Shown: positions 39,443 through 49,750, counted from the stretch's first letter. The stretch: DNA of 64,000 nucleotides from Escherichia coli (GCF_001677475.2 NZ_CP015229.1); one strand, 5' to 3'. Numbers and translations: made by a program. Notes: generated from the sequence alone by a model not told the origin.

Positions 39443-39457
39443 TCGCGTTATACGGCA

Positions 39458-39492
39458 AAAGCCGATGTCATAGCAGACATCGGCTTTTTTAT
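39458..39492. terminator. Bidirectional rho-independent terminator shared by convergent argS and flhE
   Basis: AAAAGCCGATGTC-ATAGCAG-ACATCGGCTTTTTT within the 52-bp gap. Confidence 0.8.
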
Positions 39493-46297: not shown

Positions 46298-47899
46298 TCA
46301 GGATACCACTGGCGCAATTTGTAACTGCGCCGACTCATGTCGTGCTACTTCATGTTCTTCAAGGGTAAATACCACCACACGCGACGAAAGATGGTCGGCC
46401 TGATTCGCCAGTTGTTCCGTTGCCACCGCCGCTTCTTCTACCAGCGAGGCGTTCTGCTGAGTCACCTGATCCATCTGGCTGACAGCCTGTGCAACCTGCT
46501 CAATCCCCCGCCGTTGTTCTTCCGACGCCGAAGCAATTTCTCCCATAATGTCGTTCACGCGGGTCACCGAACTGACAATATCGGTCATGGTCGCGGCGGC
46601 GTTATTCACCAGTTTCGACCCCTGCTGGACACGATTGACTGACTCTTCGATCAGCCCTTTGATCTCTTTTGCTGCCTGCGCGCTACGGCTGGCAAGATTG
46701 CGCACTTCACCTGCCACTACCGCAAAACCACGCCCCTGCTCTCCGGCGCGAGCCGCTTCCACTGCCGCATTCAGGGCCAGAATATTGGTCTGGAAAGCAA
46801 TTCCGTCGATAACGCTGATAATGTCGCCAATTTTTTGCGAGCTGGTGGCGATCTCCTGCATGGTGTGAGTCATGGTACTGACTTGAACACCGCCCGCCTG
46901 CGCCGTTGTCGCGGCATTTTTTGCCAGTTCCGACGCCTGTCGTGCGTTATCGGCGTTTTGCCCTACCGTGGCGGTTAATTGCTCCATACTGGCGGCCGTT
47001 TGTGCCAGCGATGCCGCCTGCTGTTCGGTACGACTTGAGAGATCGTTATTGCCTGCGACAATCTCCGCGATACCAATGTGCATCTCCTGGCTTCCCTTAC
47101 GCACATCACTCACCGTCCCACGCAAAGCCTGCTGCATGGTCTTCAGGCTGGCAAAAATGGCGGTGATCTCATTACGACCATATACCGCAATCGGACGCGC
47201 CAGATTACCCGCAGCAATGCTGTCAAAATGGCTACCGATAATGGCCAGTGGTTGAACAATCATCTTGCGCGTCCACCACAGCGCACTGCTGATGTAGATT
47301 GCCGCAACAATAATCATGCTGATAAACACCAGCGCCGAAATCTGATAGTTACGCTGACTTTGCGTACTGGCGGCTTCCAGCACATGGTTGATCTCCAGCT
47401 GCCAGGCCTCAAAGTTAACGTCAAACGCATTCTGTGATCCCTGCACCGGCGCAGTGAGGAAATCCGAAAGTTGATTACTTTCAAGCCAGGTCGCCTGATG
47501 TTCGAGATCGTTGTGCCAGCGGGCAAAACTTTTCTCCGTCTCTTTTTGCAACGCCCTGACGTGCTCGTTGCCCGCAGTCATCGCCATAAAACTTTTAAAC
47601 AGCGTGGTGGATTGCGTCAGACTGGCGCGCGCCGTCGTCATCAACGTTTTAATGTCATCCGCCGGATAGCTAAGCGCCGTCAGAGTGCCTGCTTTGTTCA
47701 GCGCGGTACTGGCCTGTAACATTACCGCCCGAGTTTGCGCTAATGCCGCACGTTGCTGATTGCTCTGCTCGACCTGATTCAGTCGTTGCAAATCGTCGCG
47801 AAATGCCCAAAAAGACATGCCGTTACTGCCAATCTGCAAGATCCCGCAGAGAATCAAAATTAAAAACAGCGTGGTCGAAATTCGAATACGATTAAACAT
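46298..47899 (-). CDS. tap: Methyl-accepting chemotaxis protein IV (dipeptide/pyrimidine sensor)
   Basis: 533 aa; ends with the NWETF-like pentapeptide region reduced (QIAPVVS terminus) as expected for Tap. Confidence 0.93.
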   Translation of the reverse strand: MFNRIRISTTLFLILILCGILQIGSNGMSFWAFRDDLQRLNQVEQSNQQRAALAQTRAVMLQASTALNKAGTLTALSYPADDIKTLMTTARASLTQSTTLFKSFMAMTAGNEHVRALQKETEKSFARWHNDLEHQATWLESNQLSDFLTAPVQGSQNAFDVNFEAWQLEINHVLEAASTQSQRNYQISALVFISMIIVAAIYISSALWWTRKMIVQPLAIIGSHFDSIAAGNLARPIAVYGRNEITAIFASLKTMQQALRGTVSDVRKGSQEMHIGIAEIVAGNNDLSSRTEQQAASLAQTAASMEQLTATVGQNADNARQASELAKNAATTAQAGGVQVSTMTHTMQEIATSSQKIGDIISVIDGIAFQTNILALNAAVEAARAGEQGRGFAVVAGEVRNLASRSAQAAKEIKGLIEESVNRVQQGSKLVNNAAATMTDIVSSVTRVNDIMGEIASASEEQRRGIEQVAQAVSQMDQVTQQNASLVEEAAVATEQLANQADHLSSRVVVFTLEEHEVARHESAQLQIAPVVS

Positions 47900-47944
47900 C
47901 AACGCTCCCCATCAGGCGGCAATGACCGCGTTAGTAAATACTCG

Positions 47945-49606
47945 TCAAAATGTTTCCCAGTTTGGATCTTGTTCAGCAATTCGCAGTCGTGGCTGTGCCG
48001 GTGGTTGCTCACTGGCAGGACGGGATGATGTTTGCTGTTTATTGGTGAGTGGGCTGGCTGCCAGACGAAACGCGGAAACCGCTTGCGTTAAACGACTGGC
48101 CTGTTCTTCCAGCGCAGCTGCGGCGGCAGCTGATTCCTGCACCAGCGATGCGTTCTGTTGCGTGACGCGATCCATTTCCGAAACCGCCAATGCGACTTGA
48201 TCGATGCCACGGCTCTGTTCATCCGATGCCGATGCAATCTCGCCCATAATGTCAGTCACGCGAGTGACAGCATTGACGATATTGTTCATTGTTTCCCCAG
48301 CGCTTTCGACCAGCACCGAACCGGTATCAACGCGCGAGACGGAGTCTTCAATGAGGGCTTTGATCTCTTTTGCCGCCTGGGCGCTGCGACTGGCAAGATT
48401 ACGCACTTCACCCGCCACCACGGCAAAACCACGGCCCTGTTCACCCGCACGCGCGGCCTCAACCGCGGCATTCAGCGCGAGGATATTAGTCTGGAAGGCA
48501 ATACCGTCGATAACGCTAATAATGTCGGCGATTTTCTTCGAACTATCGGCGATCTCATGCATCGTTTTCACTACGCCATCCACCACTTTGCCGCCGTGCT
48601 GGGCGGTGTCGGAGGCACTTTGCGCCAGTTGCGAGGCCTGGCGGGCGTTATCAGCGTTTTGCTTCACTGTCGCGGTGAGCTGCTCCATGCTGGCGGCAGT
48701 TTCTTCCAGCGCGGATGCCTGCTGTTCAGTACGGGAGGAAAGATCGGTGTTGCCCGCCGCAATTTCACGGGTACCGGCATAGATGGCATCGGAACCTTCG
48801 CGCACATGAGTGACGGTGTCAGTCAAAGAGCGTTGCATATGTGAAACGCTCTGCGCCAGGTCGCCCATTTCACTGCGCCCGTCAATGGTCAGGGTATTCG
48901 CCAGGTTACCACCGGCGATTTCGCGAATATGAGCAATAATTTTTGCCAGCGGTGTAAGCAACATACGGCGAATGCCGTACCACGCCACCAGCAGAATCAA
49001 TACCACCACCAGCGCAATAACCGCCAGTTGCCACTGGGCAAATCGGTAATCATCTGCGTTGTCAGTGACGATATCGCGATACAGTTTTTCACTGCTGAGG
49101 GCGTACTGAGCAAACGCTTCGCCCATTGCATTTTGCATTCCCTGGGTTGGCTGAGCGAAATAAGCTCCAGTATTGCCATAATCAAGATAATCAATCAGTT
49201 CAGTTAACGCTGTGTGATAGTTTTTATATTTTTCATCAATATTACGACTGGTAGCGACCATTTCAGGTAACGGTGCCATGCTTTTGAATTTTTTATAATG
49301 AGTCGCTGCCTGGGCCAATGTTTTCCTGGCGCTATCGAGTAATTCAACTTTGGCGTTACTTTGTTGATTTGAGGAATCCATCATCATCCGTACCGCTGAA
49401 CGACTCAGGTTAATGCGCGTTTGCAGCATTAAATCCCAGGTTGACGTCAGCTCGCCCTGCTGTTCCCGTAATTGATTGGAAACCACAAAGCTCTTCTGGC
49501 TATGGTGAAGGGAAGAAAAAAACAGACTGCCGGAAATAAGCTGTAACAGTGCGAATACCCCCAGCACCATTACCAACAGCGTGACTACGCGGATACGGTT
49601 AATCAT
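47945..49606 (-). CDS. tar: Methyl-accepting chemotaxis protein II (aspartate/maltose sensor)
   Basis: 553 aa from [23 protein letters not shown]-terminal NWETF pentapeptide present. Confidence 0.95.
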
Positions 49607-49637: not shown

Positions 49638-49664
49638 TTATCGGCAAGGAGGGGGGAAACTTTA
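49638..49664 (-). promoter_or_regulatory. Sigma-28 (FliA) class III promoter of the tar-tap-cheRBYZ operon
   Basis: Minus strand reads TAAAGTTT-N11-GCCGATAA, an exact match to the FliA consensus, about 30 bp upstream of the tar start. Confidence 0.85.
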
Positions 49665-49684: not shown

Positions 49685-49712
49685 TAAATTGAAATAAAAA
49701 ACCCGATGCGCA
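49685..49712 (-). terminator. Rho-independent terminator downstream of cheW
   Basis: CCCGATG-CGCAGAT-CATCGGG hairpin followed by a U-run on the minus strand. Confidence 0.75.
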
Positions 49713-49750
49713 GATCATCGGGTTCATTTCAATTGAGGAAATCAGGAGAA

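Follow-up and report, generated by a model that had tools for sequence, protein, structure and literature searches.

The tandem chemoreceptor genes tar and tap in the 64,000-nt stretch of Escherichia coli DNA analyzed here (the window) share a diverged direct repeat of about 630 nt that encodes their signaling domains, and recombinants in which the two genes are fused in register across this repeat recur in sequenced E. coli genomes. We regard the genes, with a probability of roughly 0.9, as old tandem paralogs at the head of an operon, in which the signaling domain is constrained at the protein level and rare in-register exchange or slippage fuses the two receptors. The locus of the window itself is an ordinary, intact textbook tar-tap pair.

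The tar-tap locus

The gene order cheA-cheW-tar-tap-cheR-cheB-cheY is found on the minus strand between 43.9 and 52.3 kb of the window and is collinear with annotated E. coli chromosomes. In the first-pass annotation, nucleotides 46298-49606 had been read as a tandem pair of paralogs that share the cytoplasmic signaling domain, with an NWETF tether kept by Tar and lacking in Tap, and this reading is borne out in each of these respects. The interval extends exactly from the tap stop to the tar start, matches to annotated E. coli genes (DNA identity up to 98.8%) identify both members of the pair, the shared part is recognized by Pfam as MCPsignal, and the translations end in NWETF for Tar and in QIAPVVS for Tap. 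By position, length and C-terminus, the gene between cheW and tap (553 aa, with NWETF) is the tar ortholog and the gene between tar and cheR (533 aa, without NWETF) is the tap ortholog. A TarH domain (PF02203) is detected by Pfam with E values of 2e-41 in tar and 2e-42 in tap, and HAMP (PF00672), then MCPsignal (PF00015), score above the gathering thresholds in both proteins. A 20-residue sequence at the hairpin tip is identical in Tar and Tap of the window and in Tsr and Trg of K-12. On the basis of orthology, Tar would sense aspartate and maltose and Tap would sense dipeptides, with methylation by CheR.

As shown in Table 1, a sigma-28-type motif upstream of tar, which we take to be the FliA consensus, lies at the head of the tar-tap-cheRBYZ operon. 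The GGGGAG in the short spacer between the two genes is located 6 nt before the tap start codon and is likely the ribosome-binding site of tap.

Table 1. Features of the tar-tap region, with positions counted from the first nucleotide of the window.
Feature	Position	Strand	Description and basis
tar, aspartate/maltose chemoreceptor (MCP-II)	47945..49606	-	553 aa, intact, C-terminus NWETF; ORF, translation
tap, dipeptide chemoreceptor (MCP-IV)	46298..47899	-	533 aa, intact, C-terminus LQIAPVVS; ORF, translation
tar-tap intergenic spacer	47900..47944	-	45 nt, contains GGGGAG; sequence
NWETF codons of Tar	47948..47962	-	CheR/CheB docking pentapeptide; translation; role from PMC4692393
Sigma-28 (FliA)-type promoter motif	49638..49664	-	TAAAGTTT-N11-GCCGATAA; pattern match in the cheW-tar intergenic sequence
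Terminator-like hairpin and T-run 3' of cheW	49692..49724	-	AACCCGATGATCTGCGCATCGGGTTTTTTATTT; sequence
Antisense-frame peptide, tap copy	46662..46772	+	ISFAACALRL..., C for W; by-product, not a gene; translation, frame analysis
Antisense-frame peptide, tar copy	48363..48473	+	By-product, not a gene; exact match to the 37-aa string of the first-pass annotation
Homologous segment, tap copy	46440..47065	-	Signaling domain, methylation helices and hairpin; blastn and ungapped profile at offset 1701
Homologous segment, tar copy	48141..48766	-	blastn and ungapped profile
Most similar 200-nt core, tap copy	46637..46836	-	Hairpin tip; pairs with 48338-48537
Most similar 200-nt core, tar copy	48338..48537	-	Ungapped profile
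Fusion crossover A equivalent	46803..46826	-	K-12-type alleles, 24-nt perfect tract; window, 1 mismatch, leaving a 14-nt run
Fusion crossover B equivalent	46944..46961	-	K-12-type alleles, 18-nt perfect tract; window, 1 mismatch
Fusion crossover C equivalent	46989-46996 (in 46989..47026)	-	8-nt tract, perfect in the window
Fusion crossover D equivalent	47016-47026 (in 46989..47026)	-	11-nt tract, perfect in the window

Extent and identity of the shared segment

Repeat finding returned two blocks (300 nt at 69% and 185 nt at 73%) and omitted the best-conserved middle, and the segment was instead delimited with blastn and an ungapped offset profile. The blastn alignment of the two homologous segments shows 73.8% identity over 634 columns. 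In the ungapped profile, identity reaches 82.5% in the best 200 nt and 85% in the best 100 nt, and the longest exact run shared by tar and tap in the window is 16 nt. The similarity had been described as a near-identical direct repeat of about 300 bp; a direct repeat is indeed present, and its length is about twice that figure. Its near-identity does not hold at the level of DNA, where the copies are 72-83% identical and the synonymous sites have diverged, so that the similarity is one of protein. The pairwise alignment that the first-pass annotation had proposed as a check gives 77.0% for the best ungapped 300 nt, which falls under the limit of about 80% that it had set for its own claim, and the copies are likewise below the DNA identity of approximately 95% or more, synonymous sites included, that we would call near-identical.

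The repeat is nevertheless real and far beyond chance: at an offset of 1,701 nt, the interval 46398-47074 shows 71% identity, whereas identity at 399 other offsets averages 26% and never exceeds 36%. The two copies have the same orientation and the same register, and the offset (567 codons) is constant, with no net insertion or deletion across the segment. In the proteins, 57 consecutive residues at the hairpin tip (DIISVIDG...AAKEIK) are identical in Tar and Tap. Third codon positions hold 123 of the 194 nucleotide differences across the repeat, and where the two receptors have the same residue, the codon is shared in only about half of the cases.

Origin of the similarity

A distribution of this kind is best explained by ancient paralogy under protein-level purifying selection on the signaling domain, and the comparison with other receptor genes points to the same origin. 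Over 630 nt in K-12, tar and tap are 72.5% identical with a longest exact run of 24 nt, compared with 77.3% and 28 nt for tar and the unlinked tsr, and 69.5% and 22 nt for tar and trg. Because tsr is at least as similar to tar as tap is, recent gene conversion can be discounted. That the copies were recently homogenized by conversion between the tandem genes, and would for that reason be a hot substrate for recombination, is a reading to which the perfectly conserved 57 residues, the nearly identical antisense peptides and a slightly closer core (82% over 198 nt for tar and tap vs 79% for tar and tsr) might lend some appeal. The differences in that core are all synonymous, however, and the low DNA identity, the short exact runs, the half-matching codons and the rarity of fusions among genomes all run counter to it; with the tsr and trg controls, the identity figures largely refute homogenization, which we consider very improbable. 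The antisense peptides invite a different explanation, that the plus-strand ORFs at 46548-46868 and 48204-48782 are genuine overlapping genes with a conserved product. Both ORFs are present as had been noted, with 106 and 192 aa, and their shared stretch differs by 1 residue in 37, every nucleotide change falling on their own third codon positions. The peptide said to occur identically in both is exact in the tar copy, but the tap copy has C for W. The 111-nt segment that encodes it contains 19 differences between tar and tap (82.9% identity), all 19 at positions that are third in the sense and antisense codons alike. This pattern is forced by the relation of the frames, since (46548 - 46298) mod 3 = 1 and the third base of each antisense codon is thus the complement of a sense wobble base. 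The two ORFs are, moreover, unlike in length and at their ends, and the sense genes that they oppose are well-characterized receptors, so that we see practically no chance of their being genes.

The antisense peptides are nearly alike because the wobble positions of their frame coincide with those of the sense frame, and their identity simply mirrors the 57-residue block of the sense proteins. The twin peptides are a frame artifact that overstates the DNA identity and is no sign of an antisense gene. As a caution of method, antisense-frame peptide matches that share wobble positions with the coding frame should not be equated with near-identical DNA.

Tar-Tap fusions in sequenced genomes

The first-pass annotation had also proposed that recombination across the repeat could delete or fuse the receptors. 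A query for the predicted deletion junction, in which the tap side up to 46750 is joined to the tar side from 48452, was searched in 5,426 complete E. coli genomes. With 1,700 nt of query, normal genomes gave 100% coverage as two pieces, and a shorter query of 997 nt was used to single out one-piece fusions. Full-length matches in a single piece are found in three of these genomes: ET474 (frog faeces, China), PEC389 (swine faeces, South Korea) and ETEC4088 (pig faeces, Belgium). Each carries one gene of 1,608 nt, annotated 'tar', between cheW and cheR, which results from a clean in-frame deletion of 1,701 bp and encodes a Tar-Tap hybrid of 535 aa without NWETF. When the fusion alleles are compared with tar and tap of K-12, one switch from tar to tap accounts for 797-799 of the 799 diagnostic sites (797-798 in the three complete genomes). 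ET474 and PEC389 show no difference from each other over 4.7 kb.

Exact copies of the two hybrid proteins encoded by the complete genomes are present on 71 and 28 contigs, which come from several archives, and a protein search revealed further 535-aa hybrids (L010, L011, L012 and L013), in which the cheA-cheW-fusion-cheR-cheB context is intact as in the complete genomes. Because hybrids with a crossover close to the 3' end group together with normal Tar at 90% identity, the protein search underdetects them. The proposed capacity of the repeat to fuse the receptors is borne out, as exact in-register events in the three complete genomes and on many further contigs, and the window itself is unrearranged and carries no fusion. 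In the junction search, the reciprocal duplication junction (tap 5' to tar 3') gave no single-piece match; its top match, H96, proved to have a tap truncated in association with IS1 and to lack the genes from cheR through flhE.

The hybrid genes could in principle be assembly collapses or laboratory constructs, which would leave the repeat without consequence in the real world. Several alleles (L002, L004 and L010-L012) are indeed very near K-12, with 0-6 mismatches in 2,668 nt of flank, and laboratory tar-tap deletions are known. Copies that are only 74% identical are nevertheless not expected to collapse in assembly, the three complete genomes derive from animal faeces in three countries, and exact hybrid proteins recur in several archives. 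One allele is found in a clearly non-K-12 background (26 mismatches), and the gene context is intact in every fusion, which together leave an artifactual origin very little credit.

A second enteric species (P0084) has a similar gene beside cheR, with an N-terminal Tar part and a C-terminal Tap part, which may extend such fusions beyond E. coli.

Crossover sites and proposed pathway

The mapped junctions fall into at least four sites. ET474 and PEC389 switch from tar to tap inside 24 nt of perfect identity (tar nt 1080-1103, codons 360-368), and ETEC4088 switches inside 18 nt (nt 945-962, codons 315-321). No other perfect tract shared by tar and tap in K-12 alleles is as long as either of these, and under uniform placement the crossovers of the complete genomes would fall in them by chance with a frequency of only about 0.3%. 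In L010 and L013, the crossover is in an 8-nt tract (nt 910-917), that of L011 is one nucleotide away from L010 (nt 905-908), and that of L012 is in an 11-nt tract (nt 880-890). A strict use of the longest perfect tracts is seen in the three complete genomes, but the 8-nt and 11-nt alleles weaken it as a general rule. The flanks of L013 have 26 mismatches to K-12, compared with 1 for L010, and L013 is unlike L010 on both sides of the junction, which indicates that the same 8-nt tract has been used at least twice.

The arrangement of the repeat suggests how the fusions would arise. Two in-register copies in the same orientation, 1,701 nt apart, may undergo rare unequal exchange or replication slippage, and because orientation and reading register are shared, either event deletes exactly 1,701 bp. 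The product is one in-frame gene of 535 codons for amino acids in which the sensing domain, HAMP and first methylation helix of Tar precede the distal signaling domain and tail of Tap; the hybrid is devoid of NWETF and the strain of tap. The pathway may be RecA-dependent exchange between the diverged repeats or RecA-independent slippage or annealing. Efficient exchange by RecA/RecBCD usually needs a perfect tract of approximately 20-27 bp. K-12-type alleles offer 24 nt and 18 nt, whereas the longest perfect tract of the window, at 16 nt, is shorter than this range and would be a poor substrate for classical RecA recombination. For the crossovers in tracts of 8-11 nt, slippage or annealing fits better than classical homologous recombination.

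Loss of tap by internal deletion

The common natural loss of tap takes a different route. In about 1,100 of 5,425 genomes, including UTI89, APEC O1, S88 and Nissle-type strains (B2/ExPEC), only a remnant of tap is present. The deletion of 1,374 bp lies inside tap, between TCGGCCTGATTC (46395-46406) and TCGACCTGATTC (47769-47780), and a 12-nt imperfect repeat is found at its breakpoints. An origin of this B2 deletion from exchange between tar and tap is rejected, as both breakpoints are inside tap.

Significance of the fusions

The correct elements of the first-pass interpretation are all already established, and the sole increment is that such hybrids also recur, rarely, in sequenced isolates. 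For the window the result has little import, the shared segment being the signaling domain common to all E. coli chemoreceptors. Since the fusions carry no label other than 'tar' in genome annotations, a count of receptors would be wrong for strains that have them. As a tentative and rather doubtful extension, wild E. coli may generate fusions again and again at a small number of preferred short identity tracts and then maintain them as circulating lineages, with the hybrid tolerated or even favored in some hosts, possibly also beyond E. coli. If this were true, the hybrid would be expected to keep the sensing of aspartate and maltose while dropping the NWETF tether, and dipeptide taxis would be removed.

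Comparison with known systems

Spontaneous tar-tap deletions were reportedly described by Slocum, Halden and Parkinson in J Bacteriol in 1987 as products of recombination between the homologous 3' regions, and the resulting Tar-N/Tap-C hybrids are said to have had reduced sensitivity. These hybrids reportedly joined N-terminal Tar to C-terminal Tap, and the same architecture is seen in the fusions mapped here; the earlier ones were laboratory isolates, whereas the present ones were found in isolates associated with animals and in public read archives. The 1987 study is among those cited for functional chimeric chemoreceptors.

Loss of Tap has been reported in uropathogenic E. coli (Lane et al. 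2006, J Bacteriol, as cited in PMC3559539), and the internal deletion of tap agrees with this report. The uropathogenic/B2 loss is, like the fusions, a natural inactivation of tap at the same locus, but it differs in that tar and its NWETF are intact and no exchange between tar and tap is involved.

Compared with tar and tap of K-12 (MCP-II and MCP-IV), the pair in the window is alike in gene order, protein lengths, domains and C-termini. The two strains differ at 24 of 1,662 nt in tar and 18 of 1,602 nt in tap, which corresponds to 3 aa in Tar and 6 aa in Tap. These differences are allelic only, and two of them break the perfect tracts of 24 and 18 nt present in K-12, so that 16 nt is left as the longest. 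NWETF is the docking site for CheR and CheB on Tar and Tsr, and Tap and Trg are the low-abundance receptors (PMC4692393). The pair in the window matches this division into high-abundance receptors with NWETF (Tsr and Tar) and low-abundance receptors (Tap and Trg) without any difference, Tap being the shorter protein and devoid of NWETF.

Loss of tap in E. coli

A segment of 1,374 bp is missing from tap in about 1,100 of 5,425 E. coli genomes, among them UTI89, S88, APEC O1, Nissle-type strains and others, and only a 152-nt N-terminal remnant of the gene remains after the deletion. The deleted segment is bounded by two 12-nt imperfect direct repeats, TCGGCCTGATTC and TCGACCTGATTC (compare positions 1993-2007 of locus L001). 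Long open reading frames also run antisense across tar and tap; they show no sign of being genes and were taken to be by-products of coding in the sense frame.

Repeats and antisense reading frames in the tar-tap region of the window
Feature	Position	Strand	Remark
Imperfect direct repeats TCGGCCTGATTC / TCGACCTGATTC flanking the tap deletion	46395-46406 and 47769-47780		Both copies present in the window
Long antisense ORFs across tar and tap	48158-48844, 48204-48782, 46548-46868	+	Up to 228 aa

Genomic setting of the window

The window is a typical stretch of the E. coli chromosome (ptrB-edd-zwf-pyk ... flhDC-mot-che-flhBAE ...) that diverges by 1-3% from the majority of complete RefSeq genomes. 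Over the first 25 kb it matches strain KV7 best (99.3%), and the che region reaches 98.8% with its best match. In the argS-flhE interval, E. coli 89-3156 carries approximately 730 bp with yecV and yecT that have no counterpart in the window, where just 40 nt (39445-39485) separate the flanking alignments.

Other variation at the tar-tap locus

Short in-frame tandem duplications of 11-26 aa are present within tar in five proteins (P0029, P0030, P0034, P0035 and P0037). The duplicated sites are several and range between the second transmembrane segment and the hairpin tip; in one case a stretch of 25 aa is repeated. Matches of the predicted deletion-junction query (H44-H46 and H47-H51) fall into two classes of shortened tar-tap span: the span is 222 bp shorter in some genomes, in which tar is annotated as a fragment, and 81 bp shorter in others, in which tap is annotated generically. 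These are additional small deletions in the tar-tap pair.

Four proteins, P0017 (771 aa), P0018 (688 aa), P0028 (680 aa) and P0027, are in-frame Tar-Tap fusions joined out of register, which yields over-long receptors with duplicated cytoplasmic parts. Homology at their junctions is tiny or nil (for example, ...QVALAV|AVYGRNE...), and each occurs in only one or two contigs.

Tar is also joined to other proteins. In P0051 (536 aa; 15 member sequences), the C-terminus of Trg, ending in EPVSFATV, follows the N-terminus of Tar, and the switch lies near KQNADNA, in the region of tar-tap crossover B. The source is a 2.9-kb contig, and the hybrid could be of natural or engineered origin. Two other large rearrangements, represented by P0033 (739 aa; on 7 contigs) and by locus L006 (NZ_CP141736.1), begin at the tar-tap locus. 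One is an in-frame Tar-FlhA fusion with tap through flhB deleted; in the other, tap carries an IS1-associated truncation that leaves argS adjacent to it.

A receptor of another enteric species, P0084 (535 aa; 14 member sequences; encoded at 130-1737 of locus L014), is Tar-like up to about residue 375 and Tap-like thereafter. Its gene lies immediately upstream of cheR, the product of which is 87% identical to the CheR of the window. P0084 may be an independent tar-tap fusion beyond E. coli, or it may be the normal gene of that species.
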